From Pseudodesulfovibrio mercurii (GTDB lineage: Bacteria; Desulfobacterota; Desulfovibrionia; Desulfovibrionales; Desulfovibrionaceae), in NCBI RefSeq assembly GCF_000189295.2, contig NC_016803.1:90001-122000 (forward strand): a stretch of DNA of 32,000 bases, read 5' to 3'. Below are positions 2,529 through 30,949 of the stretch, piece by piece (the stretch's first letter is position 1; each line of letters starts with the position of its first letter). The translations under genes and the position numbers were made by a program. The notes under the pieces are model-generated. The model made no database searches. It had not been told where the DNA came from and was given only the letters and a program-made list of their open reading frames with translations.

Positions 2529-2530
2529 CC

Positions 2531-6671: not shown

Positions 6672-6772
6672 GCATCCTCCTTGCGGGTTGCGGCCGGGCC
6701 GTGCGGGACCGGCACTTTGCCATGTTCCCATGTTGGCAAAGAGCGATGCAAAGGACAAGGAAAAAGCGCGGG

Positions 6773-8629: not shown

Positions 8630-9414
8630 GATGACCGGACCGTGCGGCGCCAGGGCTCCAGGCGCCGTTGCAGGGGGTCGAGCAGGAGCAGGTCCACGGC
8701 CAGGAGCATGGCCAGCAGGACGATGATCCAGGCAAGGACGTCGGCGGTCTCCAGGTTGACCCGGGCCAGGGCCAGGTCCGCGCCGATGCCGTCGGTGGAG
8801 GCCAGCAGCTCGGCCATGACCGCCACCTTCCAGGACAATCCCAGGGCCGTGACCCAGCCGGGGAAGAGGTAGGACAGGATGTGCGGCAGCCGCACGTCCA
8901 GGAAGAGCATGGCCGGGGGCGTGTCGAAGGAGCGGCCCATGTCCTCGAGCCCTCGGTCGCGGGTGCGCGCGCCCTCCACGGCCACGGCGAAGACGATGGG
9001 CAGGGCGGTGACCACCACGGTGAACACCGGGGTCAGGCCGGTGGTGCCGAACCAGAGCATGGCCAGGACGATCCAGGCGATGGGCGGGATGCCCAGGAGC
9101 ATGGCCGTGATGGGCCGGAGGGTCCGGGCCAGGGCGGGGTGGAGTCCGGCCAGGATGCCGACGGTGCTGCCGAGCACGGCGGCCACGGCGAAGCCGCCCA
9201 GGGCGCGCCCGGCCGTGACCAGGGCCGCCTTGCCCACCGCGCCCTCCAGGGTCAGCCGCCAGAGCGCCCGGCAGGCCTCAAGGGGCGAAGGAAGGATGAA
9301 CGGGCCGTAGCACAGGCTGCCGACCCACCACAGGGCGAGGAAGAGCGCCACGCCCAGGGCGGGGTAGCGCAGGTCCCGCAGGGCGGACCGGACCGTGCTC
9401 GCGGCGCGGGACAT
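8626..9414 (-). CDS. ABC transporter permease, NitT/TauT (SsuC/TauC-like) family
   Basis: 262 aa with ~6 TM segments and BPD_transp_1-type features. GGGAGG upstream of the ATG at 9414. Confidence 0.85.
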   Translation of the reverse strand: MSRAASTVRSALRDLRYPALGVALFLALWWVGSLCYGPFILPSPLEACRALWRLTLEGAVGKAALVTAGRALGGFAVAAVLGSTVGILAGLHPALARTLRPITAMLLGIPPIAWIVLAMLWFGTTGLTPVFTVVVTALPIVFAVAVEGARTRDRGLEDMGRSFDTPPAMLFLDVRLPHILSYLFPGWVTALGLSWKVAVMAELLASTDGIGADLALARVNLETADVLAWIIVLLAMLLAVDLLLLDPLQRRLEPWRRTVRSS

Positions 9415-9429
9415 CCTCCCTCCCGTTGC

Positions 9430-10407: not shown

Positions 10408-10637
10408 CGGTGGACTTCCTTGCAAAAGGGGTTGGGCGTGGATGTTTCGACGGGCGGCGGGCGTCCTGACCGGCACACGGGATGGCTCGGCGGATTCCGT
10501 CGGCGAATGGCGTAAGTATGTAATGGCGGGGACGGACCGGCAACGTCGTCACGGAAATATGTATACGCGTGACATATGATCCCCGGACCCAAGGTCGGGG
10601 CTGGGCCGGGGGGCGGCGGGGAGACCCTTGGGCCGGG

Positions 10638-14195: not shown

Positions 14196-14211
14196 TGGCA
14201 CGGCGATTGTA
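14196..14211 (+). promoter_or_regulatory. Sigma-54 (RpoN) -24/-12 promoter for the GS-like gene cluster
   Basis: TGGCACGGCGATTGTA versus consensus TGGCACG-N4-TTGCW: correct spacing, and only the -12 C is replaced by T. It sits 90 nt upstream of the ATG at 14301, next to a divergent sigma-54 activator gene. Confidence 0.6.
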
Positions 14212-15677: not shown

Positions 15678-15765
15678 ACACCGCACCTCCCAACCCGGGG
15701 AGGGGGGCCTTCCTTCATCCTCCCTCCCCGTGCGGTGTTTTCGAACAGGAGCAACCGGAGCAACA

Positions 15766-16863
15766 ATGAGCACCATTCCCGTCATAGAACTGACCGGCAC
15801 CCCCTTCGAACGGGGCGTCGCCCACGGCCGGGCCCTCGGGGACCTGATCGCGGAGTTCGTGGAGTCCGTGACCTCGGTCCACCAGATGAACAACGGGTTC
15901 ATCCGCGTGGACAAGGACCGGCTCGAAACCTTTTGCATGAAGAATCTCGGCTTCCTCGAAAAGTTCTCCCCCGAGCTGGTGGAGGAGATGCGCGGCATCG
16001 CTGAGGGCGCGGGCGTGACCTTCAAGGAGATTCTCTACCTCAACTCCTTCCTGGAGCTGGAGGACCTGCGTGCGCCCGGCATCGGCGGCACGGTCCTGCC
16101 CGACGGCCTGTGGGGCTGCACCACCTTCAACGTCACCCGCGACGCCGGGGAGGGCGGCCGGGCCTACATCGGCCAGACCTACGACATGGAGAAATACTAC
16201 GAGAGGTTTCTCTGCCTGCTGCGCATCGTTCCGGAACAGGGCCCGGCCCAGCTGGTCATCTCGTTCGCGGGCATCCTCGGCCTGGTCGGCCTGAACGCGG
16301 CGGGCGTGGGCGCGGTCATCAACAAGGTCACGGCCACGGACGCCCGGCCCGGCGTGGTCTACCCGTTCATCATGCGCAGGGCGCTATCCAGCGAGCGCAT
16401 CGGCGACGCGCTGGGCGCGGCCATCTTCTCGCCGCGCGCGGGGGGCATCAACTACCAGTTCGCGGGAAGCGGGGTGGCCTTCTGCGCCGAGACCTCGGCC
16501 GCGTACTACCAGCTCCTCGACATCGACGGGTCCATCGCCCACACCAACCACTTCGTGGGCCGGGACATGCGCCGGTTCGAGACCCCCAACTGGCTGTCCC
16601 ACGGCGGGTCCATGGTGCGCAAGCAGGTGGCCGACAACTTCCTGAAGCGCCATCGCGGCGCCCTCAACCCCGAGAAGCTCAAGGAGCTGACCAGGGACCA
16701 CACCAATTATCCCCGGTGCATCTGCGCCCACGGGTTCCCCGGCGAGGACCCGAAGACGGCCTTCCACACGGTCTTCGCCGTGATCATGGACCCCGAGGCG
16801 GGGTGGCTGGAGCTGTGTTCCGGCAATCCCTGCGAGAATACCTACGAGCGCCACGTCCTCTGA
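15766..16863 (+). CDS. Peptidase C45 / acyl-CoA:6-aminopenicillanic acid acyltransferase-like Ntn hydrolase
   Basis: Start MSTIPVIELTGTPFERGVAHG with GGAG 5 nt upstream. Candidate autoprocessing and nucleophile site G-CTTF (Cys118, nt 16117-16119), as in the G/CTT site of the AAT family. Confidence 0.8.
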   Translation: MSTIPVIELTGTPFERGVAHGRALGDLIAEFVESVTSVHQMNNGFIRVDKDRLETFCMKNLGFLEKFSPELVEEMRGIAEGAGVTFKEILYLNSFLELEDLRAPGIGGTVLPDGLWGCTTFNVTRDAGEGGRAYIGQTYDMEKYYERFLCLLRIVPEQGPAQLVISFAGILGLVGLNAAGVGAVINKVTATDARPGVVYPFIMRRALSSERIGDALGAAIFSPRAGGINYQFAGSGVAFCAETSAAYYQLLDIDGSIAHTNHFVGRDMRRFETPNWLSHGGSMVRKQVADNFLKRHRGALNPEKLKELTRDHTNYPRCICAHGFPGEDPKTAFHTVFAVIMDPEAGWLELCSGNPCENTYERHVL

Positions 16864-16935
16864 CGCGGCGGTGAATCGGCTGATGTTCGGTAGCTGGCAA
16901 GCATTTTCAACATATTAAGCAAGCAGAGGTGTGCA

Positions 16936-18501
16936 ATGGAAACGAATGCGAAGTTGGAGAAGACCCTGAAAGAGTATGAGTCCGGCGGCATGACCCGCCG
17001 CTCGTTCCTCAAGACCATGACCACCCTGGGCGTGGCCGCGGCCGTGGCCAACGCCGTGGCCCTGTCGCCGCTGGGCGCGGTCAAGGCGTTCGCCGCCATC
17101 TCCGGTCCCGAGGAGCGCGCCTGGGCCCTGGCCAAGGTGGCTGCGGCCAAGGCCACGAAGAAGACCCTGACCCTGCTCATTCCCACCGGGTCCATCGGCA
17201 ACATGACCCCGTATGCCGACAAGTGGAAGAACGAACTCGGCATCACCCTGGAGTTCATCGAGGAGCCGGACGAGGTCGTCCACACCAAGGGCATGCAGGA
17301 GGCCGTGGCCAAGACCGGCCGGTACGACGTCATGATGCCCACGGCCATGTCCTATCCGGACTGGATCGACTCCGGCGTCATCTACGACCTGACCGACTGG
17401 ACCGAGAAGTACGACCCCGAGCTGTTCAACAAGGAATGGGGCGTGGTCTTCCCGGCCTCGCACCATGCCCAGCTGTACAACGGCCGCGTGGCCGGTCTGC
17501 TCAACGACGGCGACCAGATCACCCTGCTGTGCCGCAAGGACTACCTTGAGGATTCCGACAAGGCCAAGGCCTTCGAGGACAAGTTCGGCCGCAAGCTGGC
17601 CGTGCCCGACACCTGGAAGGAGTACTACGACCTGGCCTCCTTCATGCATGATCCGGCCAAGGGCTTCTACGGTTCCCTGGAATACCGCTCCCCGTACTAC
17701 GTCAAGTGGATGTTTATGCAGCGCCTCGTGTCCAAGGGCATGCTCTACTTCGACGGCGAGATGAACCCGACCTTCAATTCCGACGAAGGCGTGGCCGCCC
17801 TGGAAGACATGCTGGCCATGAACCAGTTCCTGCACCCGGACGCCTTCTCCTTCACCTGGTCCTCCAACTACAACGCCTTCGGCCGGGGCGAGGGCTTCAT
17901 GAACATCGTCTGGCCGTCCGGCTTCAAGTACTCCATGGCCCCGTCCACCGGCCCGGCCACCACCGGCAAGATCGCGGCCACCGTCATGCCCGCCGACTTC
18001 ACCAAGGACGGCACCAAGCTGTACGCGGGCATGTTCTGCTGGGGCTACGGCTACGCGGTCTCCAAGTATTCCGCCAACCCCGAGCTGGCCTACGCCTACT
18101 CCCAGTGGATGACCTCGCCGACCATCTCGGCCGACGCCATCCCGTACCTCGGCGGCTACTCCGACCCGTATCGCGTCAACCACATGCTCGAACCCACCAA
18201 GCGGCTGGTGGACACCTACACCAAGCCGTACCTGAACACCCTGTACAACAACATGGTCAACACCGTGCCCGACTTCTGCCTGCCCGGCGGCTTCGAGTAC
18301 CAGGACGCCCTGGACAAGGAGGTGCACGCCTGCATGACCGGTTCCAAGAAGCCCAAGGAGGCCCTGGAACAGGCCGCGCACAAGTTCGAGCGCATCACCC
18401 GCCGCATCGGCAAGGACAAGGTCAAGAAGGCCTGGATCGCCCTGACCTCCAACCTGGCCGCGCCCATCAAGAAGGCCGCGGGCGTGGACAACTGGAGCTA
18501 G
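16936..18501 (+). CDS. ABC substrate-binding protein, family 1 (sugar/polyamine type), twin-arginine signal
   Basis: GAGGTG RBS before the ATG at 16936. Tat-like motif GGMTRRSFLKTMTTLGVAAAVANA. 521 aa, long for SBP_bac_1. Followed by the cognate permeases. Confidence 0.85.
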   Translation: METNAKLEKTLKEYESGGMTRRSFLKTMTTLGVAAAVANAVALSPLGAVKAFAAISGPEERAWALAKVAAAKATKKTLTLLIPTGSIGNMTPYADKWKNELGITLEFIEEPDEVVHTKGMQEAVAKTGRYDVMMPTAMSYPDWIDSGVIYDLTDWTEKYDPELFNKEWGVVFPASHHAQLYNGRVAGLLNDGDQITLLCRKDYLEDSDKAKAFEDKFGRKLAVPDTWKEYYDLASFMHDPAKGFYGSLEYRSPYYVKWMFMQRLVSKGMLYFDGEMNPTFNSDEGVAALEDMLAMNQFLHPDAFSFTWSSNYNAFGRGEGFMNIVWPSGFKYSMAPSTGPATTGKIAATVMPADFTKDGTKLYAGMFCWGYGYAVSKYSANPELAYAYSQWMTSPTISADAIPYLGGYSDPYRVNHMLEPTKRLVDTYTKPYLNTLYNNMVNTVPDFCLPGGFEYQDALDKEVHACMTGSKKPKEALEQAAHKFERITRRIGKDKVKKAWIALTSNLAAPIKKAAGVDNWS

Positions 18502-18556
18502 AACGAGACTCCCAACAACCGAACCCGGCCCGGGGGCCATTCCCCGGGCCGGTCAG

Positions 18557-19492
18557 GTGGAAAACGTGACACAGACAGCTATCGGCACCACTCCGGACCG
18601 CAAGGGGTTCAGCAACCAGGCCATCGCCCGCATCTTCACGGTGCCGGGGCAGGTGGTCTCCCTCCTGGTCCTCGTCATGCCGCTCTTGGTGGCATTGTAT
18701 ATGAGCTTCACCGACTGGTCGCCCACGCGCGGCTCCCTGTTCGACGCCTCCTTCGTGGGCTTCGACAACTATTCGGAACTGCTCATCTGGGACACCCGGT
18801 TCATCTACGCGGTCATCCGCACACTGCTCATCTCCGGCATCTGCCTGTGCCTCGAGTTCACCTTCGGGCTCGGCCTGGCGGTCCTGTTCCTGCGCAGGTT
18901 CCGGGGCAAGTCGGTGCTCTTCTCGGCGTTTCTGACGCCCATGATGATCCTGCCCGTGGTGGTGGGGTACATCTTCTGGATGCTCTTCCAGTCCAACGGC
19001 CCGGTGAACCAGATGCTCGAGTTCGTCTTCGGGGCCGGGGCCACCCTGGACTGGTTCCGCTCGGCCGCCCCGGCGATCGTCGCGGTCATCGTCACCGAGG
19101 TCTGGCACTGGACGCCGCTCTTCTTCCTGATCCTGCTCTCCGGGCTCAACTCCGTGCCCGAGAACCCGATACGGGCGGCGGTCATCCTCGGGGCCAACCC
19201 CAGCCAGGTCTTCTGGCGCGTGGTCATGCCGACCCTCAAGCCGGTCATCATCGTGGCCTTCGTCATCCGGGCCATGGAGATCATCAAGCTCTTCGACGAG
19301 GTCTTCATGCTCACCCGGGGCGGGCCCGGCTCCTCCACGGAGACCATCAGCCTGTACATCTACAAGCTGGCCTTCAACGACTTCCAGCTCGCCTACGGCG
19401 CGGCCGCGGCCTTCCTGGTCCTGGTGGGATCGCTCCTGCTGGTCCACCTGCTGCTCGCCCCGGTGCGCAACCAGCTCCTGGAGGGCAAATAA
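18557..19492 (+). CDS. ABC permease (MalF/UgpA/PotB-like, BPD_transp_1)
   Basis: 6 predicted TM segments and an EAA-like loop (AAVILGANPSQVFWRVVMP). The start is GTG at 18557 per the track; the exact start is uncertain. Confidence 0.8.
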   Translation: MENVTQTAIGTTPDRKGFSNQAIARIFTVPGQVVSLLVLVMPLLVALYMSFTDWSPTRGSLFDASFVGFDNYSELLIWDTRFIYAVIRTLLISGICLCLEFTFGLGLAVLFLRRFRGKSVLFSAFLTPMMILPVVVGYIFWMLFQSNGPVNQMLEFVFGAGATLDWFRSAAPAIVAVIVTEVWHWTPLFFLILLSGLNSVPENPIRAAVILGANPSQVFWRVVMPTLKPVIIVAFVIRAMEIIKLFDEVFMLTRGGPGSSTETISLYIYKLAFNDFQLAYGAAAAFLVLVGSLLLVHLLLAPVRNQLLEGK

Positions 19493-20352
19493 TGCAAGAC
19501 AAGAAGCTTTCCCCCGTGCAGACCATCATCATGGGCGCGGCCCTGATCGTGGTCCTGTTCCCGGTCTTCTGGATCCTGATGACGGCCATCAAGCCGCCCA
19601 CCGACTGGAACGCGTCCCCGGCCATCTGGGTCCCGTCCGAGCCGACCTTCGTCAACTTCCAGACCCTGTTCGACCCCGAGGCTTTGGGCAAGTACGGCGT
19701 GGGCGGCGTGAGCCAGCCCGCCACCAAGGCGGTCTTCGGCTCGCTGCTGGCGACCATCGTGTCCACCACCCTGTCCGTGATCATCGGGCTTTTCTCGGCC
19801 ATCGGTATCTCGCGCTACGGGAACAACTCCAAGTCCACGCCCCTGGTCATCCTGTCCGGGCGCATGTTCCCGCCCGCGGCCATCGCCGTGCCCTTCGTGA
19901 TCATCTTCTCGAACATCGGGCTGATCGACAGCTACACCGGACTCATCGCCATCTACGTGGCGGTCACGCTGCCGTTCTCCACCTGGATGCTCAAGTCCTT
20001 CGTGGACGACCTGCCGCGCGAGATCGAGGAGGCGGCCATGATCGACGGGAGCGGCAAGCTGGCCGCGCACCTGACCGTGACCATTCCGCTCATCAAGGGC
20101 GGGCTGTTCGCCACGACCATGTTCATCTTCATTCTCAACTGGTCGGAGTTCATGTTCGCCCTGGTCCTGGCCTATTCGAACATCTCGACCATCCCGGTCC
20201 AGCTCGCCAAGTACGTCACGGCCACGGCCGGGACCCTGTACGGCGTGCAGGCCGCCCTGGCCGTGCTGGCCATGATTCCCTTGGTCATCGTCGGCTACCT
20301 CATCCAAGGCCACCTCGCCCGTGGCATGACATTCGGAGCGATCAAGCAATGA
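19492..20352 (+). CDS. ABC permease (MalG/UgpE/PotC-like, BPD_transp_1)
   Basis: MQDKKLSPVQTIIMGAALIVVLFPVFWILMTAIKP. EAA loop EEAAMIDGSGKLAAHLTVTIP. The ATG at 19492 overlaps the preceding TAA by 1 nt. Confidence 0.85.
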   Translation: MQDKKLSPVQTIIMGAALIVVLFPVFWILMTAIKPPTDWNASPAIWVPSEPTFVNFQTLFDPEALGKYGVGGVSQPATKAVFGSLLATIVSTTLSVIIGLFSAIGISRYGNNSKSTPLVILSGRMFPPAAIAVPFVIIFSNIGLIDSYTGLIAIYVAVTLPFSTWMLKSFVDDLPREIEEAAMIDGSGKLAAHLTVTIPLIKGGLFATTMFIFILNWSEFMFALVLAYSNISTIPVQLAKYVTATAGTLYGVQAALAVLAMIPLVIVGYLIQGHLARGMTFGAIKQ

Positions 20353-21461
20353 GCAGACCCAAACTGGAACTGGTGAAGCTGCGCAAGGAATATTCCGACG
20401 GCAACGTCATCGCCGTGGACGACATCGACCTGGCCGTGGAGGCCGGGGAGACCGTGGCCCTGCTGGGCTCCTCCGGCTGCGGCAAGTCCACCACCCTGAA
20501 CATGATCGTCGGTCTGGAGCAGCCCACCGGCGGCGACATCCAGATCGACGGGGCCACCGTGGTCAACACCCCGGCGGGCAAGCGCAACGTGGGGCTGGTC
20601 TTCCAGGACTACGCGGTCTTCACCCACATGACCGTGCGCAAGAACCTGGCCTTCGGCCTGGAGGTGCGCGGCAAGTACGTGCTGGAGATCAACCGGGCCG
20701 TGGAGGGCGTGGCCGAGTTGCTCGGCATGCAGGACAAGCTCGACGTCAGCGTCAAGGAGCTGGGCGGCTCGGAGCTCCAGCGGGTGGCCATCGGCCGGAC
20801 CCTGGTGACCAAGCCGGAGATCCTGCTCCTGGACGAGCCCCTGTCCAACCTGGAGGCCGAGGCGCGGCTGGCCATGCGCCGCGAACTCAGGCGGTTGCAG
20901 CAGGAGATCGGCCTGACCATCATCTACGTGACCCACGACCAGGTGGAGGCCCTGTCCCTGGCCGACCGCATCGCGGTCATGAACATGGGCCACATCCTCC
21001 AGGTGGAGGAGACCTCGACCATCTTCGCCCGGCCGGACCACACCTTTGTGGCCGGGTTCCTGGGCTCGCCGCCCATGAACCTGCTGCGCGGCCGGTTCGT
21101 CACCGACGGCGGGGCCATCCGTTTCACCAAGGACGCCTTTTCCCTGGCCATGGGCGAGAGTGCCGACGGTCCCGCGCCCGGCGGGTTCCACACCCTGGGC
21201 GTGCGTCCCGAATCCCTGAGCCTGTCCGAGTCGCGGACGCCGGACATCACCGGGCGCATCCACAACGTGGAGCCGCGCGGCCCGGAGATGGTCGTCACCG
21301 TGGAGGCGGGCCACGAGATGCTCACCCTGGTCACGCCGCCCTCGGGCGCCCTGCACACGGGCGACCCCGTGGGGCTCGATATCGACTTCGACTCCCTGGT
21401 CTTCTTCGGCGGGGACAGCAACCGCCGCGAGGAGATCAGCGTGGCCGGGAGGGTTTTCTGA
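20349..21461 (+). CDS. ABC ATPase 1 (MalK/UgpC/PotA-like with C-terminal TOBE-like domain); degenerate signature motif
   Basis: Walker A GSSGCGKST, Q-loop VFQDYAVF, Walker B ILLLDEPLSNLE and H-loop VTHDQ are all canonical. The signature is LGGSE (nt 20760-20774) instead of LSGGQ. ATGA overlap with the permease gene. Confidence 0.9.
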   Translation: MSRPKLELVKLRKEYSDGNVIAVDDIDLAVEAGETVALLGSSGCGKSTTLNMIVGLEQPTGGDIQIDGATVVNTPAGKRNVGLVFQDYAVFTHMTVRKNLAFGLEVRGKYVLEINRAVEGVAELLGMQDKLDVSVKELGGSELQRVAIGRTLVTKPEILLLDEPLSNLEAEARLAMRRELRRLQQEIGLTIIYVTHDQVEALSLADRIAVMNMGHILQVEETSTIFARPDHTFVAGFLGSPPMNLLRGRFVTDGGAIRFTKDAFSLAMGESADGPAPGGFHTLGVRPESLSLSESRTPDITGRIHNVEPRGPEMVVTVEAGHEMLTLVTPPSGALHTGDPVGLDIDFDSLVFFGGDSNRREEISVAGRVF

Positions 21462-22582
21462 TGACGACCGCCAACATCGGGGGGCAGACCCCCGTCCTGC
21501 ACCTGGAATCCGTGTCCAAGCGGTTCCGCGACAACCAGGCCCTGAGCGGAGTGGACTTCGTCGTGCCCGAGGCCTCGCTGACCGTCATCCTCGGCCCGGC
21601 CGGGGCGGGCAAGACCACCACCCTGCGGATCATCGCCGGGCTGGAGACGCCCGAGCAGGGGCGCGTGCTCCTGGGCGGCGGCGACGTGGGCCGGTGGGAG
21701 CCGCGCGACCGCAACGTGGCCATGATCTTCGACAACCTGGCGCTCTATCCGAACAAGAGCGGCTTCGACAATATCGCCTCGCCCCTGGTCATCCGCAAGG
21801 AGAGCGGGGAGGTCATCCGGGAGCGCGTGGAGGGGATCGCCAAGACTCTGCAGATCACCCACGTGCTCGGGCGGCTGCCCAAGACCATGTCCGGCGGCGA
21901 GAAGCAGCGCGTGGCCCTGGGGAGGGCGCTCATCCGCACGCCCCAGCTCTTCCTGCTCGACGAGCCCCTGTCCAGCCTGGACGCCAAGCTGCGCATCGAA
22001 CTGCGCGCGGAGCTGCGGCGCATGCAGCGCGAGCAGGGGTACACCTTCCTCATGGCCACGCCCGACTACCACGAGGCCATGGCCATCGCGGACACGGTGA
22101 TCATGCTGAGCAAGGGCCGCGTGGTCCAGGTGGACGCGCCCCAGACCATCTACGATCTGCCCGCGGACCGCGAGACCGCCTGCTTCGTGGGCGCGCCCCA
22201 GATCAACCTGTTCCGGGGCGAGTTCGACGAGGCCTCCGGCACGGTCCGCATCAAGGACGCCGGGGTGTCCCTGGCCGCGCCCGAGCATCTGGCCGCGCCC
22301 CTCAAGGCCAGGGGGAGCGGGTTCGAGCTGGGCATCCGTCCGGAGAACCTGGTCCTGACCGCGCCGGACGGAGCCCCGGCCGTGGGCGAGCTGATCGACA
22401 TCGAGCCGCTCGGACCCAAGTCCGTGGCCACGGTGCGCGTGCACGACGCCGAGTTCCGCGTGCTCATCGACAGCCGCGAGGTCCCCGGCCTGACCCTGCA
22501 CGCACCCATCGGGGTGACCCCGGTGAACACCGCGCGCATGGTCGCCTTCGACCTCGAAACCGGGTTGCGGATACAGGCATGA
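21461..22582 (+). CDS. ABC ATPase 2 (MalK/UgpC-like); degenerate Q-loop and H-loop
   Basis: Walker A GPAGAGKTT, signature MSGGEKQRV and Walker B LFLLDEPLSSLD are intact. The Q-loop Gln is Asp (IFDN, nt 21731-21733). The H-loop His is Pro (ATPDYHEA, nt 22061-22063). TGATG overlap with ATPase 1. Confidence 0.85.
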   Translation: MTTANIGGQTPVLHLESVSKRFRDNQALSGVDFVVPEASLTVILGPAGAGKTTTLRIIAGLETPEQGRVLLGGGDVGRWEPRDRNVAMIFDNLALYPNKSGFDNIASPLVIRKESGEVIRERVEGIAKTLQITHVLGRLPKTMSGGEKQRVALGRALIRTPQLFLLDEPLSSLDAKLRIELRAELRRMQREQGYTFLMATPDYHEAMAIADTVIMLSKGRVVQVDAPQTIYDLPADRETACFVGAPQINLFRGEFDEASGTVRIKDAGVSLAAPEHLAAPLKARGSGFELGIRPENLVLTAPDGAPAVGELIDIEPLGPKSVATVRVHDAEFRVLIDSREVPGLTLHAPIGVTPVNTARMVAFDLETGLRIQA

Positions 22583-23547
22583 TCAACATCTTCGTCACCT
22601 ACCGGTGCAACCTCGCCTGCTCCTACTGCTTCGCCAGGGAGCTGCACGCCGAGTACCCCGAGGACCTGACCGAGGAGAACTTCGCCCGGCTCCTGGAATG
22701 GATGGAGCGGGCGCAGCTCCCGGCGGCGGCCTTCATCGGCGGCGAGCCGACCCTGCACCCGCTGCTGCCGTACATGGTCGAGCGCACGGCCGAGGCGGGC
22801 ATCGCCCCGGTGCTGTTCACCAACGGCCTGTTCCCCACGGACCTGGCGGACCGGCTCACGCCCGTGGTCTCCAACTTCGTGGTCAACTACAACGAGCCGT
22901 CCATGTACTCCGACACGCAGGCAGCGCTGCTCGACGCCAACCTGACGGCCATCGCCCGGTCCGGGGCGCGGCTGACCTTCTCCAAGAACTTTTCCAGCCG
23001 GTACCGCGAGTACGGCTACCTGCTGGAGGGGTGCGCCCGGTACGGGGTGCAGTCCGTGCGCTACGACATCTCTCGGCCGTCCATCTCGGCGGCCAACGAC
23101 CACTTCACCAACGACGACACGCGGCAGGTCATCTCCCACATCGTCCGTTTCGTGAAGGCGTGCGAGGAGCGGGGCATCCGCACCGGGCTTGATTGCAGCG
23201 TCCGTTTGTGCGACCTCAGGATCGAAGACCGGAACTACCTCGAGCGGGTGTCCATGAAGTTCTCCGGGGTCTGCCATCCGTCCATCGACGTGCATCCGGA
23301 CCTGTCCGCGTCCTACTGCCTGCCCATGCGGGACATCGCGGTGCCGGACGTGACCGCCTTTTCGAGCCAGGACGCGGTCATGTGGCACTTCGCCGAGCGG
23401 GTACGGCCCATCCGCAAGGCCAACGTGTCCACGGACTGCCTGGAGTGCAAGGACTTCATGCGCCGCTGCCAGGGGGGCTGCATGGCCCTGCGCCGCGCCG
23501 CCGCACCGGCCGCGCCGGACACCGATGACAACGCCAAGGAAGCATAG
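22579..23547 (+). CDS. Radical SAM enzyme with C-terminal SPASM/twitch-like Cys cluster (322 aa)
   Basis: CNLACSYC (CX3CX2C, Cys10/14/17, nt 22606-22629) and FIGGEPTL (SAM-binding GGE). The C-terminus has GVCHPSIDVHPDLSASYC and CLECKDFMRRCQGGC (CX2CX6CX3C, nt 23437-23481). ATGA overlap with ATPase 2. Confidence 0.85.
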   Translation: MINIFVTYRCNLACSYCFARELHAEYPEDLTEENFARLLEWMERAQLPAAAFIGGEPTLHPLLPYMVERTAEAGIAPVLFTNGLFPTDLADRLTPVVSNFVVNYNEPSMYSDTQAALLDANLTAIARSGARLTFSKNFSSRYREYGYLLEGCARYGVQSVRYDISRPSISAANDHFTNDDTRQVISHIVRFVKACEERGIRTGLDCSVRLCDLRIEDRNYLERVSMKFSGVCHPSIDVHPDLSASYCLPMRDIAVPDVTAFSSQDAVMWHFAERVRPIRKANVSTDCLECKDFMRRCQGGCMALRRAAAPAAPDTDDNAKEA

Positions 23548-23550: not shown

Positions 23551-26235
23551 ATGAGCCGACGGAAGATCGTGACCACCTGCACCCGGGACTGCCCCAACTC
23601 CTGCGGCCTGATCGCCGTGGTGGAGGACGGGCGGCTGGTCAAGCTCTCGGGCGACCCGGACCACCCCCTGACCGGCGGGGTGTCCTGCCACAAGACCGCC
23701 AAGTACATCAAGCGGGTGTACAGCGCCGAGCGCATCACCCACCCCCTGCGCAAGGTGGACGGCCGCTGGCGACGGGCGACCTGGGACGAGGTCCTGGACC
23801 TGGTGGCCGACAAATTGAAGGCGGTGGTCGCCGAGTCGGGGCCCGAGGCGGTCCTGTACTACCAGGGGTACGGCGAGCGCACGGCGCTCAAGCTCCTGAA
23901 CAAGTATTTCTTCAACCTGCTGGGCGGGGCCACGACCATGCGCGGCTCCCTGTGCGGCGGGGCCGGGCAGGGGGCCCAGAACCTGGACTTCGGCAACCGC
24001 GTGTCCCACGACCCGTTGGACCATTACAACTCCAAGTCCATGATCCTGTGGGCGCGCAACCCGGTGTCCACGAACATCTCCCTTGTCAGGATCGCCAAGG
24101 ACATCAGGAAGCGCGGCGGCCGCGTGATCGTCGTGGACCCGGCGCGCAGCCTGTCCGTGAACATCGCCACCGACCACATCCGGCCCAAGCCGGGCCGCGA
24201 CGGCTTCCTGGCCATGGCCGCGGCCAAGCTGATCCTCAAGGCCGGGGCCGAGGACCGCGATTTTCTGGAGAACCGGGCCGTGGGCTGGGCCGAGTACCAG
24301 GCCATCCTCGACGGCTTCACCGTGCCCGAGCTGTGTTCCCTGGCCGGGGTGTCCACGGCCGACGCCGAACTGCTGGCCGACACCCTGATGCATCAGTTCC
24401 CGACCTCCATCCTGCTCGGCTGGGGGCTGCACCGCCACGAGTACGCCCACTACGTCATCCGGCCCATCGACGCCCTGGGCGGCATCGCGGGCCTCCTCGG
24501 CACGGCGGGCGGCGGGGTCAGCCAGGGGTTCGAGGAGTACGGCCCCTACGACCAGGCCTGGTGGGGCGACCAGCTGCACCCGGACCACCGGACCCTGCTC
24601 ATCGCCAAGGTGGGCGAGGAGATCCTGAACGCGCGCGACCCGGAGATCCGCATGATCGTGGTCACGGCGGGCAACCCTGTGTGCATGGCCCCCAACGCGG
24701 ACAAGATCGTCCGGGCGTTCAAGAAGGCCGAGATGGTCGTCTACTCCGGCCACTTCCTGGACGACACCGCCGAGCTGGCCGACATCTTTTTGCCCGCGAC
24801 GACCTTCCTGGAGGAGGACGACCTGATGGCCAGCTACGGCCACAACTTCGTGGGCCCGGTGAACCCGGCCATCGAGCCGGTGGGCGAGACCAAGTCCGAA
24901 TTTCAGATGTTCCAGGAATTGTCCGAGCGGTTCCCCTTTGCCGGGGAATACCGGCGGTCCGTGGCCGACTGGCTGCAAACCATCTGCGCCCCGCTCTGGG
25001 AGCAGGGCGCGGACCTCGAAACCGTGCGCAGGGGGCCGTTCCGTCTGGACGCGCCCATGGTCCCGTACGCGGACGGCGTGTTCCCCACCGAATCGGGCAA
25101 GTTCCAGTTCATGACGGAATTCGACCCGGCCGTGCTTCAGGACGAGGACCCGGAATATCCGTACAAGCTCCTGACCATCGCGCCCCACGGGTACATCTGC
25201 TCCGAGCGGACCATGGCCGAGCACGAGGCGTTGCCCACGGTCGTCCTGAACACCGAGGAGGCCCGCAGGCGGGGCGTGTGCGACGGCGGCCACGTGCTGG
25301 TGCGCAGCGCCTACGGCCGGCTCATGGCCCTGCTCAAGGTGGACGAGGCCACGCGGGGCGACGTGCTCGTCACCGAGCGCGGCGGCTGGAACAAGGCGGG
25401 CCACGGGGTCAACCTGCTGACCAGGGACATCGCCTCCATCGTGGGCCAGGGCACGCCGTTCTACGAGACCAGGGTCACGGTGGAGCCGTGCCCGGACGAC
25501 GGGATCATCGGCTCCCGCGTGCTGGTAATCCAGCACTCGGACGAGTCGCCCGGCGGCAATTTCACCAAGGAACTGGCCCGGCAGGGGTGCCTACTGACCA
25601 CCGTCATGCCCGGCGAAGGGGACGCGCTGCCCGATTCGCCCGAGGGGTTTGACCGATTGGTGGTCCTGGGCGGCCCGCAGCACGCCTTCGACGATCAGGG
25701 CTCGCCGCACTTCCCGGCGCTGATGCAACTCATGCGCGGCTTCGACGCGGCGGGCAAGCCCGTGGCGGGCATCTGCCTGGGCTGCCAGATCCTGGCCAGG
25801 GCCTTCGGCGCGACCATCCGGACCATGCCCGAGCTGGAGTTCGGCTACGTGCGGCTGACCGTGACCGAGGCGGGCGCGCAGGACCCGGTGGTGGGCCCGG
25901 CCGGGCCCATCCCGCCGCTCATGGAGTTCCACGAGGACACCTTCGACCTGCCCGAGGGGGCCGAACTGCTGGTCACGGGCGCGGCCTGCGCCAACCAGTG
26001 CTTCCGGGCGGGCAACGCCTCCTACGGGTTTCAGTTTCACCTGGAGCTGGACTCCATCGGGGCCGAGGCGTGGTTCGAAGAGTTCCAGCGCGGCGACATC
26101 GACACCTACGCGAAATACCGCGACCAGTTCACCGACGAATTCTTTGCCGAGATGCGCGGCCGGTTTCCGCTCCTCGTTCCGCAGTCCGGGGACTTCTGCC
26201 GGAACGTGGCCCGGAATTGGCTCCGGCTGAAATAG
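23551..26235 (+). CDS. Cytoplasmic Mo/W-bis-PGD (DMSO-reductase/MopB superfamily) oxidoreductase fused to a C-terminal class-I glutamine amidotransferase domain (894 aa)
   Basis: The N-terminus, with no Tat signal, has C10-X3-C14-X3-C18-X27-C46 ([4Fe-4S] domain). Molybdopterin and Molydop_binding regions follow (YPYKLLTIAPHG...VLVRSAYGRLMALLKVDE). From ~nt 25490 there is a GATase1 domain: RVLVIQH, VVLGGP, GICLGCQ (Cys742, nt 25774-25776) and FQFHLE (His830, nt 26038-26040). It starts 4 nt after the radical SAM stop. Confidence 0.85.
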   Translation: MSRRKIVTTCTRDCPNSCGLIAVVEDGRLVKLSGDPDHPLTGGVSCHKTAKYIKRVYSAERITHPLRKVDGRWRRATWDEVLDLVADKLKAVVAESGPEAVLYYQGYGERTALKLLNKYFFNLLGGATTMRGSLCGGAGQGAQNLDFGNRVSHDPLDHYNSKSMILWARNPVSTNISLVRIAKDIRKRGGRVIVVDPARSLSVNIATDHIRPKPGRDGFLAMAAAKLILKAGAEDRDFLENRAVGWAEYQAILDGFTVPELCSLAGVSTADAELLADTLMHQFPTSILLGWGLHRHEYAHYVIRPIDALGGIAGLLGTAGGGVSQGFEEYGPYDQAWWGDQLHPDHRTLLIAKVGEEILNARDPEIRMIVVTAGNPVCMAPNADKIVRAFKKAEMVVYSGHFLDDTAELADIFLPATTFLEEDDLMASYGHNFVGPVNPAIEPVGETKSEFQMFQELSERFPFAGEYRRSVADWLQTICAPLWEQGADLETVRRGPFRLDAPMVPYADGVFPTESGKFQFMTEFDPAVLQDEDPEYPYKLLTIAPHGYICSERTMAEHEALPTVVLNTEEARRRGVCDGGHVLVRSAYGRLMALLKVDEATRGDVLVTERGGWNKAGHGVNLLTRDIASIVGQGTPFYETRVTVEPCPDDGIIGSRVLVIQHSDESPGGNFTKELARQGCLLTTVMPGEGDALPDSPEGFDRLVVLGGPQHAFDDQGSPHFPALMQLMRGFDAAGKPVAGICLGCQILARAFGATIRTMPELEFGYVRLTVTEAGAQDPVVGPAGPIPPLMEFHEDTFDLPEGAELLVTGAACANQCFRAGNASYGFQFHLELDSIGAEAWFEEFQRGDIDTYAKYRDQFTDEFFAEMRGRFPLLVPQSGDFCRNVARNWLRLK

Positions 26236-26478: not shown

Positions 26479-27300
26479 CTAGTCGGTCGGCCGCCAGAGG
26501 AAGGTGCTCGCGCCCTTGCCGATGATGGTCAGGCGGAAGTGTTCGTCGCAGGGTCGTCCCGCCGCGCCGCAGCAGACGTGCAGGGGCAGGAGGTGCTCCT
26601 CGCGCGGGTGGCAGTAGCGGGCGTGGGGCGCGGATTCCCAGTGGACGAGCCGTTGCCCGCGTTCGTCCGGGGTCAGGGCCGGGTCGGCGCAGGTCTCGAT
26701 GAGCCACCGCTGGAACGCGTCGTTGGCGTCGGCGGTCTCGGCCGTGTCCGGGGTGAAGAAGGCGCGCATGTTGTGGAAGGAGAATCCCGAGCCGAGGATG
26801 AGCAGATTGTCCCGGTCGAGGTCGGCCAGGGCCCGGCCCAGGGCCAGGTGCGCCGCCGGGTCGAGTCCCTTGAGCAGGGAGAGCTGCACGCAGGGGATGT
26901 CCGCCTCGGGGTACATGATCTTGAGCGGCACGAACAGGCCGTGGTCGTAGCCGCGCTCCGGCTCTTGGCCGCAGGGCAGGCCGCGGGCGGCCAGGGCGTC
27001 GCGGACCGCTTGGGACAGCGCGTCGTCGCCCGGGGCGGGGTAGGCGATCTCGTAGGACTCCGGGGGGAAGCCGTAGTAGTCGTAGTAGAGGGGCGGACGG
27101 TCGCCCATGGTCACGGTGGGGGCGGATTCCTCCCAGTGGGCGCTGATCACCAGGATGGCGGACGGCCGGGGGATGCGCGCGGTCAGGACCTTGAGGTTGG
27201 CGACCATCTCGGCGTGGCCCTCGTCGCCGAGCAGGGGCAGGGGGCCCGCGCCGTGGGAGATGTAGATGACGGCGTGGCGGCCGGGCTTGGGTTCTTGCAT
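26479..27300 (-). CDS. 4,5-DOPA dioxygenase extradiol-like protein (YgiD / class III extradiol dioxygenase family)
   Basis: HAVIYISHGAGPLPLL, ILVISAHWE, YDYYGFP, YDHGLFVPL and LILGSGFSFHN are hallmarks of the LigB/YgiD family. AAGGAA RBS. Confidence 0.85.
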   Translation of the reverse strand: MQEPKPGRHAVIYISHGAGPLPLLGDEGHAEMVANLKVLTARIPRPSAILVISAHWEESAPTVTMGDRPPLYYDYYGFPPESYEIAYPAPGDDALSQAVRDALAARGLPCGQEPERGYDHGLFVPLKIMYPEADIPCVQLSLLKGLDPAAHLALGRALADLDRDNLLILGSGFSFHNMRAFFTPDTAETADANDAFQRWLIETCADPALTPDERGQRLVHWESAPHARYCHPREEHLLPLHVCCGAAGRPCDEHFRLTIIGKGASTFLWRPTD

Positions 27301-27309
27301 GATCTTTCC

Positions 27310-28398
27310 TTATTCCTTGGGCGGCCGGGCCGCCTGTTGGGCCAGGGTCAGGGCCAGGTCGCGCAGGGCGCGGCCCTGTTCCAGGCCGTCGATGAATCGT
27401 TCGGGGATGCCGGACAGCCCCACCTGGGCCCCGACCAGGGCCCCGGTCAGGATGGCCCGGACCTGGTTCTGGCCGCCGCCGTTGACGGCGTGCAGCACGG
27501 CGGATTCGAAGTCGTCGCAAAAACGGGCCGCCAGGTAGTAGGCCGCCGGGAGCATGTGGTAGATGGCGCAGGGCATGCCGTAGACCAGGGAGACCTTCCA
27601 GGCCGGTTCGATGCGGATGTCCGGGTCGGCCGCGGCCCTGGCCATGTAGCTCGGCGAGAGCAGGGCGTCGGGCGAGGCGAAGCGGCCCGCGCGCGGCGGG
27701 TCCGGGTCGCCGGGCCGGGGCGGCTTGAGCCCGTCGCGGGTCACGGCGTGGAAGGGCAGGACGCCCTTCTTGACCAGGTGCATGAGCTTGTCTGACAGGC
27801 GCGCGTCGAGTGTTTCGCCCCGGACGAGCTGGGCGAGGACAGCACCGTAGGCCACGGTCAGGGAGAGGACCAGATCGTCGGACTGGGTCAGGGCCGCGTT
27901 GCGGGCCACGGCTTCGGCCAGGCTCCCCGGATCAAGGGCGTAGCGCACGGCGATGGCCAGGGTCCGCTCGATGGCCTCGGTGGTATCGGCGTGCCCGGCG
28001 GTCTCGCCCCAGGGGCGGCCCTGCTCCACCCGCCTGCGCCAGGCCTCGCGGATGGACTGGCTGGTGTAGCCGCCCGGCCCGTTGGCCGGTTCCCCGTTGA
28101 GCAGGGGGAAGAGCTCCTCGTCCATGCGGCGGCAGAAGTCCGCCTGGTCGTAGCCGCCATTTTCGACCAGGGAGCGGGCCGTCAGTTCGAGAATGAACCC
28201 CGACTGGGACAGCTGGCCCGCCTTCATGCCGTCGTGGTAGCGGCCCGGCATGGGGTCGGTGTAGCCGTCGATCCACGGGCCGTAGTCGCGGCGCAGTTCG
28301 TCCAGGTCGTAGTACCAGTGTGGCCCCAGTCCCAGGCCGTCGCCGATCCAGGCGCCCATCAGCGCGCCCGCCGCGCGGTCCCGCAGGGTCTCGTCCAT
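27310..28398 (-). CDS. ADP-ribosylglycohydrolase-family protein (DraG/ARH-like)
   Basis: RDRAAGALMGAWIGDGLGLGPHWYY plus a C-terminal GGQNQVRAILTGALVGAQVG (metal-binding D/T motifs of PF03747). Start taken as the ATG at 28398 (GGAG 8 nt upstream); 28404 is possible. Stops 9 nt before the dioxygenase gene. Confidence 0.8.
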   Translation of the reverse strand: MDETLRDRAAGALMGAWIGDGLGLGPHWYYDLDELRRDYGPWIDGYTDPMPGRYHDGMKAGQLSQSGFILELTARSLVENGGYDQADFCRRMDEELFPLLNGEPANGPGGYTSQSIREAWRRRVEQGRPWGETAGHADTTEAIERTLAIAVRYALDPGSLAEAVARNAALTQSDDLVLSLTVAYGAVLAQLVRGETLDARLSDKLMHLVKKGVLPFHAVTRDGLKPPRPGDPDPPRAGRFASPDALLSPSYMARAAADPDIRIEPAWKVSLVYGMPCAIYHMLPAAYYLAARFCDDFESAVLHAVNGGGQNQVRAILTGALVGAQVGLSGIPERFIDGLEQGRALRDLALTLAQQAARPPKE

Positions 28399-28518
28399 GT
28401 GCATCGCTCCGGTGTTCCGGTGGGGGAAGGGCGGTCGCACCTTCCCGTATGGCCATGCTACGGCGGATGGGCGGAGAGGGAAAGTTTTTTCCCGGAGCGG
28501 GGGGCGGGGCGAACGAAG

Positions 28519-29384: not shown

Positions 29385-30191
29385 CTAGGACCGTTCCCAG
29401 TTCTTGACCTCGTTCCACAGGGTGTTCATCTCGTCCAGGCCGAGGTCGGTCAGGGTCTGGCCGCGCATCTCGGCCAGCTCCTCCATGCGGGCGAACCGGG
29501 ACAGGAACTTCTGGTTGGCGAAGTCCAGGGCCGCGTTGGCCTTGATGCCCTTGCGCCGTCCCAGCTCCACCAGGGTGAAGAGGTAGTCGCCGAACTCGCG
29601 CTCCGAGTTCCCGGCGTGGCCCTGGGCCAGGGCCTCCTGCCACTCGTCCCATTCCTCCCGCAGCTGCACCTCCACCTCACGATCCGACGGCCAGGTGAAC
29701 CCGTTGCGCGCGGCCTTGGAGTGGATGCGGTAGGCCTTGAGCAGGGGCGGCAGCCCCGAGGGCAGGGAGTCGTAGACCCGTTTGCGGTCCGTGCCCTTGT
29801 TCTCCTCGCGCTTGGTCTTCTCCCAATTGTCCCACAGCTCGGTGATGTTGTCGAAATGCTTGTCCCCGAAGACGTGGGGGTGGCGGCGGATCATCTTGGC
29901 CGCGCTGTAGTTCAGGGAGTCGGCCAGGGTATGCGACCCCTCGCGTTCGTACAGGGTGGCCATGAACAGGAGGATGAACATGACGTCGCCCAGCTCCTCC
30001 ATGGCCTCGTGGGGCTTGCCCGAGCGGATGCCCTCGATCAGTTCGAAGGTCTCCTCGGCCAGGTAGTCGCACAGGGTCAGGGGGGTCTGTTCCTTGTCCC
30101 AGGGGCAGCCGTCGGGCGCGATCAGGGCGTCGATGACCCCGAGCAGTTCGCGCAGGGCCTGGGCAGGGGCGTCGTGTTTCGTTTCGCTCAT
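29385..30191 (-). CDS. mazG: Nucleoside triphosphate pyrophosphohydrolase MazG (tandem MazG domains)
   Basis: The start MSETKHD has an AAGGAG RBS. Motifs: CPWDKEQT, EETFELIE, EELGDVMF, RRHPHVF, and a second EEWDEWQEA...EFGDYLF domain. Confidence 0.9.
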   Translation of the reverse strand: MSETKHDAPAQALRELLGVIDALIAPDGCPWDKEQTPLTLCDYLAEETFELIEGIRSGKPHEAMEELGDVMFILLFMATLYEREGSHTLADSLNYSAAKMIRRHPHVFGDKHFDNITELWDNWEKTKREENKGTDRKRVYDSLPSGLPPLLKAYRIHSKAARNGFTWPSDREVEVQLREEWDEWQEALAQGHAGNSEREFGDYLFTLVELGRRKGIKANAALDFANQKFLSRFARMEELAEMRGQTLTDLGLDEMNTLWNEVKNWERS

Positions 30192-30238
30192 GGCGAATCT
30201 CCTTGAAGAGGCGGAAAGCGGGTTGATTGAAGTGGGGG

Positions 30239-30760
30239 CTACTCGGCCTTGTCGCCGCCCGGTATGCCCAGCGCGCTCTTGGCCGAGTCCAGGGCCTCGG
30301 GCAGATCGACGTATTCGCCCAGCTTGCCGACCAGGTGCTGGGCCTTGGGCGCGATGTACGATTCGGTCAGGATGTCGGAGCGGGGCGCGAAGGTCTGCAG
30401 GAACATGAGCCCGACCAGGCAGATGAGCACGCCCTCGAGCAGGCCGAAGATTCCGCCGAGGGTGCGGTCGATCCAGCCGAGCAGGGATATCTCCAGCACG
30501 CTGCGGATCAGTTTGGTCAGCAGCCAGACCAGCACCAGGGTGCCGATGAAGATGAGCGAGTAGGACAGCGCGCTGACCGTGATGTCGCTCTCGATGTACA
30601 GCTTGAGGTGCGGGGCCAGGACGTCGTCGAACCGGGAGGCCAGGAATATGGCCAGGACCACGGCGATGAGCGACAGGACCTCTTGCACCAGGCCGCGGAA
30701 GAAACCGCGCAGGAGGAAGAGGGCGACGATGCAGATGAGAACGATATCCAGAAAATTCAT
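30239..30760 (-). CDS. cvpA: CvpA-family (colicin V production) inner-membrane protein
   Basis: MNFLDIVLICIVALFLLRGFFRGLVQEVLSLIAVVLAIFLA is the typical CvpA N-terminus. 4 TM segments. Upstream of, and probably co-transcribed with, mazG. Confidence 0.85.
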   Translation of the reverse strand: MNFLDIVLICIVALFLLRGFFRGLVQEVLSLIAVVLAIFLASRFDDVLAPHLKLYIESDITVSALSYSLIFIGTLVLVWLLTKLIRSVLEISLLGWIDRTLGGIFGLLEGVLICLVGLMFLQTFAPRSDILTESYIAPKAQHLVGKLGEYVDLPEALDSAKSALGIPGGDKAE

Positions 30761-30949
30761 GTAAATGCACCCATGGTCGGCTGAAGTGAACTTCCTCACA
30801 GAGCCCTAGCAAACTGCGACCGAAATGTGAACCGCATTCAGGGTATAATTTTGTAATGGGCCGAGGCCGGAAAAGTGGATCGGGGTTGTGTCCCTTGCTG
30901 AACTCGGCTACAGGAATTCCAGTCGCCCACCTTTTGCAAGGAGTCGTGC

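Follow-up and report, generated by a model that had tools for sequence, protein, structure and literature searches.

A conserved gene joining a predicted MopB-type molybdenum oxidoreductase to a class-I glutamine amidotransferase domain closes a candidate gamma-glutamylation operon in Pseudodesulfovibrio mercurii

A 32,000-nucleotide stretch of the Pseudodesulfovibrio mercurii genome (contig NC_016803.1, positions 90,001 to 122,000; hereafter the window) carries, at 23551-26235 on the forward strand, a single 894-residue open reading frame (ORF) in which a predicted [4Fe-4S]/molybdenum-bis(pyranopterin guanine dinucleotide) (Mo-bisPGD) oxidoreductase of the MopB type is joined to a class-I glutamine amidotransferase (GATase) domain. 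The fusion gene is real and conserved, and it is the last of nine co-directional genes, the others of which encode a glutamine synthetase (GS)-like ligase, a C45-family amidohydrolase, an ATP-binding cassette (ABC) importer and a radical S-adenosylmethionine (radical-SAM) enzyme. The preferred reading, which is given about an even chance of being correct, is that the GATase domain hydrolyzes the gamma-glutamyl amide in a gamma-glutamylation pathway, of which the Mo domain and the radical-SAM enzyme would carry out an anaerobic redox step.

The ORF begins with ATG and has no internal stop in the ORF listing of the window. An identical 894-residue protein from strain ND132 is deposited under the name "molybdopterin oxidoreductase" (EGB13321.1, WP_014320749.1, UniProt F0JDF2), and the same protein is also present in independent Logan assemblies. 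A search of 5.8 billion proteins recovered more than 100 clusters, formed at 90% identity, that have this four-domain architecture and are 52-87% identical, together with unfused homologues of ~650 residues at ~65% identity. Those four-domain clusters that carry an organism name belong to the Desulfovibrionales (Pseudodesulfovibrio, Nitratidesulfovibrio, Solidesulfovibrio, Oceanidesulfovibrio, Megalodesulfovibrio, Desulfonatronum and others), and 31 fused loci run through both halves in one continuous frame. Split versions in other taxa might be taken to mean that a frameshift or misassembly has joined two genes in the window; as more than 100 clusters, complete genomes and independent assemblies all keep the same continuous ORF, the probability of such an artefact is close to nil. 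A preliminary description of this DNA, made from its letters alone, had read the region as a single MopB-GATase fusion, and this was borne out: neither a frameshift nor a stop lies near nt 25490. It had also taken the architecture to be unusual. Instead, the architecture is widespread in the Desulfovibrionales, and GuaA1 (COG0518) is already listed as a new domain fused to DMSO reductase (DMSOR)-family proteins in Table 4 of Peng, Xu & Zhang 2018 (BMC Genomics 19:691, PMC6147048), where the fusion is only listed, without analysis of gene context, function or distribution. That entry was the sole find of literature searches on the fusion, the gene cluster, the ND132 locus tags, 9xfs and YfeJ, which turned up no paper on the operon, on its aerobic counterpart cluster or on the ~650-residue MopB subfamily. 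Neither the window protein nor P0292 was found by exact-gene look-up in the contig index.

The four Pfam domains of the protein all exceed their curated thresholds (Table 1), with the Molybdopterin and Molydop_binding domains in the canonical order of the MopB/DMSO-reductase superfamily. AlphaFold2, run on an alignment of 34 sequences, modelled the protein confidently as one body (pLDDT 88.3, pTM 0.89). As the FeS motif starts already at residue 10, there is no twin-arginine translocation (Tat) or Sec signal, and the N-terminal Arg-Arg pair is not conserved among 34 fused homologues; the protein is predicted to be cytoplasmic, as had been proposed.

The C-terminal half had been described as a complete class-I GATase, and its PF00117 score is about twice the cut-off. 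The presumed nucleophile, Cys742, lies in the elbow motif GICLGCQ, and His830 and Glu832 lie in FQFHLE. Among 110 homologues, whether fused, split or aerobic, 101 keep this Cys-His-Glu triad whole, including all 25 GATases that are linked to the gene cluster described below; at least one triad residue is lost in the remaining nine (~8%: P0003, P0023, P0036, P0076, P0077, P0079, P0082, P0100 and P0101). The nearest relatives are stand-alone COG0518/PRK07053-like GATases without an assigned function (9xfs, 3m3p, 3l7n and 1o1y; the PDB matches include 9xfs_A at 2e-29 and 3m3p at 1e-20), and the domain also matches the plant gamma-glutamyl peptidase GGP1. It shares an operon with a GS-like ligase, and such co-occurrence is a trait of hydrolases of the PuuD/IpuF/AtdA2 type.

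In the MopB half, Cys10, Cys14, Cys18 and Cys46, which form the four-Cys [4Fe-4S] motif, and Cys135 are invariant in the 34 fused homologues, and the same five residues are still invariant in a 90-sequence family alignment that includes homologues only 36-46% identical. Cys135 aligns with SeCys140 of Escherichia coli FdhH and, in the Methanospirillum formate dehydrogenase (7bkb_D), with the Cys that is the Mo ligand there; it is the likely Mo ligand, in agreement with the preliminary description. It is followed directly by Gly in all homologues, versus His in formate dehydrogenases. Foldseek gave TM scores of 0.69-0.78 to many MopB structures, and the half is equally distant, at ~20% identity, from cytoplasmic formate dehydrogenases, Nap, the DMSO, TMAO and Met-sulfoxide reductases and acetylene hydratase, with every NCBIfam family score far under its cut-off. 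A formate dehydrogenase of the FdhF/FdhA type was rejected, there being no (Se)Cys-His dyad and a TIGR01591 score of 202.6 bits against a cut-off of 666, and so was an assimilatory nitrate reductase (NasC 137 bits, cut-off 1100; NasA_Halo 124 bits, cut-off 1000). Asp13, which precedes Cys14, is ~90% conserved in the 34 fused homologues and may or may not correspond to Asp13 of acetylene hydratase (Ahy), the catalytic Asp that adjoins an FeS cysteine in that enzyme. Oxidation or hydroxylation, N-O or S-O reduction and non-redox hydration are all options for the Mo centre, among which fold and sequence do not discriminate.

The half is a member of a large family of ~650-residue cytoplasmic MopBs, with 991 representatives at E<1e-30 in a library clustered at 50%. 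In a neighbour-joining tree of the MopB domain the fused, split and stand-alone forms interleave following taxonomy, which rules out a separate paralogue clade for the cluster-linked proteins. No alignment position distinguishes 26 cluster-linked MopBs from 42 stand-alone ones. The idea that the radical-SAM enzyme is a dedicated maturase of the cluster-type MopB found no support, since there is no such discriminating position and stand-alone orthologues occur without the radical-SAM enzyme. No conserved neighbours of the stand-alone paralogues were found.

The operon in which the fusion gene lies contains no gene for a ferredoxin-type or cytochrome partner, as had been noted before. A self-contained redox enzyme had been one of the options given for the Mo protein; this did not hold, since it is encoded at the end of a conserved nine-gene operon, with the radical-SAM gene stopping 3 nt ahead of its start codon. 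The radical-SAM gene is directly upstream of the MopB gene in all cluster loci and in Acetobacterium, and its translation has a CX3CX2C motif and a C-terminal SPASM-like CX2CX6CX3C motif. The first gene of the operon encodes a putative ATP-dependent gamma-glutamyl ligase, 75-96% identical across related clusters, which falls under the NCBIfam cut-offs for GlnA, type III GS and GGputSyn and has as its top PDB match NpaA1 (8wwu), a gamma-glutamyl-arylamide synthetase. The C45-family N-terminal nucleophile (Ntn) hydrolase that follows retains the self-cleavage site Gly-Cys-Thr-Thr, which aligns with Gly102-Cys103 of isopenicillin-N acyltransferase (2x1d).

Table 1. Features of the window and of the aerobic counterpart loci. 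Positions are in the window, except in the last three rows, where they are in the locus named.
Feature	Position (nt)	Strand	Basis and remarks
MopB (Mo/W-bisPGD) half of the fusion protein	23551-25500	+	Pfam, alignments, structure comparison; Cys135 codon 23953-23955
Class-I GATase (COG0518/PRK07053-like) half	25516-26235	+	Codons Cys742 25774-25776, His830 26038-26040, Glu832 26044-26046
Molybdop_Fe4S4 (PF04879), residues 6-58	23566-23724	+	Pfam 7.7e-11
Molybdopterin (PF00384), residues 61-460	23731-24930	+	Pfam 4.3e-40
Molydop_binding (PF01568), residues 556-637	25216-25461	+	Pfam 2.3e-9
GATase (PF00117, class-I), residues 696-834		+	Pfam 7.5e-12; 45.7 bits, cut-off 22.8
GS-like ATP-dependent gamma-glutamyl ligase (predicted; annotated "Glutamate--putrescine ligase", EGB13313.1)	14301-15677	+	Pfam Gln-synt_C 7.7e-80
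C45-family autoproteolytic Ntn amidohydrolase/acyltransferase	15766-16863	+	NCBIfam C45_proenzyme 222 bits, cut-off 85
Periplasmic solute-binding protein (SBP_bac_1, CUT1-like)	16936-18501	+	Pfam
ABC permease 1	18557-19492	+	Pfam BPD_transp_1; conserved
ABC permease 2	19492-20352	+	Pfam BPD_transp_1 on the C-terminal part of frame 18847-20352; start placed from 286-residue orthologues (that of M. gigas has 286 residues)
ABC ATPase 1 (MalK/TOBE type)	20349-21461	+	Pfam ABC_tran, OB_MalK, TOBE_2
ABC ATPase 2 (MalK/TOBE type)	21461-22582	+	Pfam
Radical-SAM enzyme (EGB13320.1)	22579-23547	+	Pfam Radical_SAM 3.8e-12; no NCBIfam equivalog
Sigma54-type -24/-12 promoter-like element TGGCACGGCGATTGTA	14196-14211	+	Best match in the window; 106 nt ahead of the start codon of the GS-like gene
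Hybrid PAS histidine kinase	12040-13926	-	Pfam PAS, HATPase_c, Response_reg; partner of the sigma54 regulator
Sigma54-dependent response regulator (NtrC family)	10638-12032	-	Response_reg and Sigma54_activat 5e-63; divergent from the operon
NMT1-type binding protein	9430-10476	-	Downstream of the sigma54 regulator, same strand
Permease	8626-9414	-	Downstream of the sigma54 regulator
Unusual ABC-ATPase::Peripla_BP_2 fusion, 618 residues	6773-8629	-	Downstream of the sigma54 regulator
Sulfite-oxidase-family Mo domain protein (Oxidored_molyb)	5973-6896	-	Downstream of the sigma54 regulator
Aerobic cluster, Rubrivivax gelatinosus (L091)	15663-17810
Aerobic cluster, Bosea sp. 117 (L090)	15938-19526
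Aerobic cluster, Rhizobium sp. ACO-34A plasmid (L092)	9983-19386

Conservation of the operon was examined with one genome per species, using tblastn with all operon proteins. MopB and GATase, fused or split, stand beside the GS-like, C45, ABC and radical-SAM genes in about 25 loci from the Desulfovibrionales, Desulfobacterium, the Syntrophobacteraceae and Thermodesulfobacteriota, in two gene orders. In the second order the GS-like, C45, radical-SAM, MopB and GATase genes precede the transporter (L033, L035, L040 and L047). The GATase of L033 (a Desulfovibrionaceae metagenome-assembled genome, MAG), L035 (Desulfobacterium) and L040 (Syntrophobacteraceae) has a gene of its own, which either overlaps the MopB stop or directly adjoins it; L047 (Syntrophobacteraceae) was scored as split from the length of its MopB ORF and a downstream GATase match. 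Two of the cluster loci (L012 at ~2095 and L013 at ~2084) have an additional stand-alone GATase-like gene between the C45 and binding-protein genes, besides the fused GATase.

Outside these loci the hydrolase varies. A separate COG0518 GATase gene follows the MopB gene in Pelotomaculum and in a Desulfotomaculaceae MAG. In Acetobacterium paludosum the order is GS-like ligase, C45 hydrolase, AmiS/UreI channel, radical-SAM enzyme, a 645-residue MopB, a Peptidase_C26 hydrolase and a GGACT gamma-glutamyl cyclotransferase, the Peptidase_C26 protein showing only marginal similarity. The fused GATase of Fundidesulfovibrio butyratiphilus lacks the nucleophile; its gene lies outside the cluster and is flanked by genes for a gamma-glutamyltranspeptidase (GGT), a GCS2 ligase, a RimK-like ATP-grasp enzyme and an FGase. 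As side observations, the MopB-GATase pair of Pelotomaculum and the Desulfotomaculaceae MAG (L070 4649-12714, L076 2484-10600) comes after a URO-D-type methyltransferase gene and pylS-pylB-pylC-pylD, a possible hint of methylamine metabolism from one lineage only, the two loci being syntenic; and in a Nitrospirota MAG (L088 6812-12926) a 38%-identical MopB homologue has as flanking genes two argininosuccinate-synthase-like ones, a DUF3786 gene and an amino-acid permease, which is a further ATP-dependent N-ligase context for the family.

The transporter extends beyond the anaerobes. Its binding protein is 74-100% identical over 120 clusters that include aerobic Alpha- and Betaproteobacteria as well as Desulfobacterota, which suggests horizontal spread and a highly constrained, common ligand; among solved structures in the PDB, ligand-class searches returned just distant CUT1 sugar/polyol binders. 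The protein is far more conserved than the adjoining enzymes. The same five-gene transporter occurs in Bosea, Rhizobium sp. ACO-34A and Rubrivivax, with a binding protein 76-82% identical to that of the window, and after it come genes for a COG0518 GATase, 31% identical to the window domain, for a GS-like enzyme with 40% identity and for an amidase of the amidase-signature type. Rubrivivax combines the GATase and the GS-like enzyme in one fused protein of 715 residues. These aerobic clusters also carry a Pyridox_ox_2 flavoprotein and a MocR-type regulator. The conserved core therefore consists of the transporter, the GS-like enzyme, the GATase and an amidohydrolase, with the radical-SAM and MopB proteins as anaerobe-specific additions.

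The genes upstream of the operon include a divergent sigma54-dependent response regulator and its PAS histidine kinase partner. Orthologues of the regulator (57-58% identical) occupy the same position in L033, L035 and L040, where the kinase is also conserved beside the cluster, and in 17 of 19 related loci the GS-like gene is preceded, at a distance of 81-114 nt, by a TGGCAY-N5-TTGAT/TTGTA element. Distant members of the MopB family adjoin nitrogen-fixation genes: a 40%-identical homologue in Methanothermobacter (L086 591-10001) comes right after nifH-nifI1-nifI2-nifD-nifK-nifE-nifN, near glnA, and a 44%-identical one (L087 831-7327) lies between nifEN/nifX-like genes and modABC. There are also nif genes within 10 kb in L034 (14853-22891), where the gene is fused and in the cluster, and in L083 (14033-17445). 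The sigma54 system and the nif-adjacent family members together suggest, circumstantially, that the fusion operon is expressed under nitrogen limitation.

Because MopB is repeatedly linked to glutamate-ligating enzymes and to enzymes that cleave gamma-glutamyl bonds, the gene neighbourhood has the signature of the gamma-glutamylation pathways Puu, Ipu and Atd/Npa. In the pathway proposed here, the ABC system would take in a small nitrogen compound, the C45 hydrolase might first cleave an amide in it, and the GS-like ligase would use ATP to couple its amino group to the glutamate gamma-carboxyl. An oxygen-independent redox step on the gamma-glutamylated intermediate or its leaving group would then fall to the radical-SAM/SPASM enzyme together with the [4Fe-4S]/Mo-bisPGD domain. 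Finally, Cys742, His830 and Glu832 of the GATase would hydrolyze the gamma-glutamyl amide, i.e., the conjugate or, should the Mo step yield it, glutamine itself, regenerating glutamate and releasing the product. The fusion would thus join two consecutive enzymes of one pathway, and would not be an amidotransferase with an ammonia tunnel; the operon as a whole would be sigma54-controlled and probably nitrogen-scavenging.

Several observations weigh against this proposal. The GATase half belongs to the COG0518/PRK07053-like group and not to Peptidase_C26: the window protein has no PF07722 match (among the homologues, precomputed matches occur only in P0066 and P0086), and no COG0518/PRK07053-like member could be cited for a demonstrated gamma-glutamyl-amide hydrolase activity. 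In Nitratidesulfovibrio and D. caledoniensis the fused gene lies away from the cluster, and nothing informative was found among the neighbours of such genes. The aerobic clusters do without MopB and the radical-SAM enzyme, which leaves the role of the redox module unexplained, and the clues from transport conflict, in that Acetobacterium has a small-amide/urea channel whereas the binding protein of the window is sugar/polyol-like. The MopB domain is also the same at conserved positions as stand-alone paralogues that have no GS-like, GATase or radical-SAM neighbour, and being indistinguishable from them, its chemistry may be generic rather than specific to gamma-glutamyl compounds.

One specific form of the proposal, itself unlikely, makes the Mo domain a nitrogen-regulated oxo-transfer reductase of N-O bonds. 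The GS-like enzyme would trap an N-oxygenated amine, such as one of the hydroxylamine type, in the form of a gamma-glutamyl derivative, for example gamma-glutamylhydroxamate, the Mo domain would reduce this to glutamine, and the GATase would be a true glutaminase that releases ammonia and glutamate. GS enzymes accept hydroxylamine, the MopB fold is as close to the S- and N-oxide reductases (MtsZ, DMSO and TMAO reductases) as to formate dehydrogenases or Nap, the nitrogen-linked contexts (nif-adjacent homologues, sigma54) would fit, and the flavoprotein of the aerobic clusters could be the aerobic reductase counterpart. However, the NCBIfam scores lie far under the bisC, TorA and Nas cut-offs, the importer resembles the sugar/polyol type, and the radical-SAM enzyme and C45 hydrolase would be left unexplained. 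A quite unlikely alternative holds the GATase to be mainly non-catalytic, a module that senses glutamine or gamma-glutamyl compounds or acts as a scaffold, and so regulates or stabilizes the Mo enzyme. The independent loss of the triad in nine sequences (P0003 to P0101) that retain the domain, and the fused gene outside the cluster in Nitratidesulfovibrio, would be accounted for in this way; the triad is nevertheless kept in 92% of the sequences and at every cluster-linked locus, and the domain is replaced elsewhere by catalytically competent analogs (Peptidase_C26, GGT).

The Mo domain could instead be a non-redox Mo/W hydratase of the acetylene hydratase type acting on a nitrile-, cyanamide- or alkyne-like nitrogen compound, the amide product of which would be handled by the amidohydrolase, GS-like and GATase enzymes. 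The architecture is like that of acetylene hydratase (monomeric, cytoplasmic, one [4Fe-4S] cluster, a Cys ligand and no partner subunit), with a match to 2e7z at E 2e-28 and TM 0.74; the Acetobacterium cluster has the AmiS/UreI small-amide channel, and some homologues adjoin the genes of nitrogenase, an enzyme inhibited by compounds of these kinds. Acetylene hydratase is, however, no closer than any other MopB at ~20% identity, and the aerobic clusters have no hydratase. This alternative is considered improbable. A genuine amidotransferase, in which the GATase hydrolyzes glutamine and the ammonia is channelled to the Mo domain as acceptor (synthase) site, is thought very improbable. The full class-I triad, a covalent link to another catalytic domain such as classical amidotransferases have, and the confident single-body model would all suit such an enzyme, but no MopB enzyme known to us makes use of ammonia. 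Four observations disfavour a supply of ammonia to the Mo site: in Rubrivivax the same type of GATase forms one protein with the GS-like enzyme, where a donated ammonia would serve no purpose; Peptidase_C26 with GGACT, or GGT, stands in for it in other lineages; ~8% of homologues have lost the nucleophile, although their MopB residues are invariant; and stand-alone MopB orthologues exist without a GATase. The preliminary description had left the choice between this mechanism and a PuuD-like deglutamylation; the latter is favoured by the GS-like ligase in the operon, by the split and re-fused variants and by the replacements just mentioned.

A wider proposal is made tentatively, with the balance lying somewhat against it: that the operon encodes an undescribed, oxygen-independent gamma-glutamylation pathway, in which the radical-SAM enzyme and a new Mo-bisPGD subfamily take the place of an oxygenase or oxidase, and in which the Mo domain works on a gamma-glutamyl conjugate and passes it straight to the fused hydrolase. 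Sulfate reducers and other anaerobes would use this pathway to scavenge nitrogen from a common compound, one that aerobic Proteobacteria would take up with a nearly identical transporter and process with their GS-like, GATase and amidase enzymes. If this is true, gamma-glutamylated nitrogen compounds would be a new class of substrate for the Mo/W-bisPGD (DMSO-reductase) superfamily, and the gamma-glutamylation pathways would have a first anaerobic version, with a radical-SAM partner. It would also provide a first functional handle on a very large family of ~650-residue orphan cytoplasmic MopBs, found in sulfate reducers, relatives of Geobacter, Firmicutes and methanogens, sometimes right after nif genes. 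The comparison has in addition exposed a conserved aerobic cluster (ABC importer with GATase, GS-like enzyme and amidase), for which no paper assigning a function was found, and a transporter shared at such identity by very distant bacteria implies a widely available nitrogen source.

Other features of the window were noted in passing. The Oxidored_molyb protein is a second molybdoenzyme, possibly under the same sigma54 regulator, in a group of four genes (5973-10476). Convergent to the fusion gene (26479-28440, reverse strand) are a LigB-type extradiol dioxygenase, which is 4,5-DOPA-dioxygenase-like and stands in a strict anaerobe, and an ADP-ribosylglycohydrolase; both were rejected as pathway members, being conserved in the closest relative (L006) alone. 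In a 475-residue protein (29385-30812, reverse strand), a MazG pyrophosphohydrolase domain covers just residues 242-315, between large flanks that have no Pfam match, and a tripartite efflux operon of the MacA/MacB/TolC type (1287-5875) encodes an HlyD-like protein, a MacB ABC-FtsX fusion and an OEP protein.

The known gamma-glutamylation routes act on putrescine (Puu, with PuuA and PuuD), isopropylamine (Ipu, with IpuC and IpuF) and aniline or 1-naphthylamine (Atd/Npa, with AtdA1/AtdA2 and NpaA1/NpaA2), and include GlnA2-4 of Streptomyces. NpaA1 gamma-glutamylates 1-naphthylamine and is encoded with the GAT-like protein NpaA2, which its authors considered to reverse the NpaA1 reaction on the basis of 98% identity to AtdA2. 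Like the Puu, Ipu and Atd/Npa systems, the window operon combines a GS-like ATP-dependent ligase, a class-I GATase-fold hydrolase and a transporter, and a redox enzyme is proposed to act between ligation and hydrolysis. Unlike them, it would use Mo-bisPGD and radical-SAM enzymes for the redox step and not an oxidase, P450 or Rieske oxygenase; its hydrolase is covalently fused to the redox enzyme and is COG0518/PRK07053-like where those of the PuuD type are Peptidase_C26, and a C45 Ntn hydrolase is added.

With FdhH, NarB/NasA, acetylene hydratase and BisC/MtsZ the Mo half shares the N-terminal four-Cys [4Fe-4S] motif, the four-domain MopB fold, a Cys at the Mo-ligand position and, as a soluble protein, the lack of a dedicated electron-transfer subunit, but it is only ~20% identical to all of these monomeric enzymes and belongs to its own ~650-residue family. 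Formylmethanofuran dehydrogenase (the FwdA amidohydrolase with the MopB unit FwdBD) likewise couples a MopB unit to an amide-bond hydrolase/synthase on the same pathway intermediate, although FwdA is a binuclear-metal amidohydrolase, unlike the Cys-His-Glu GATase of the window fusion. In domain architecture the window protein is the same as the DMSOR-GuaA1 (COG0518) fusion of Peng et al. 2018 (PMC6147048).

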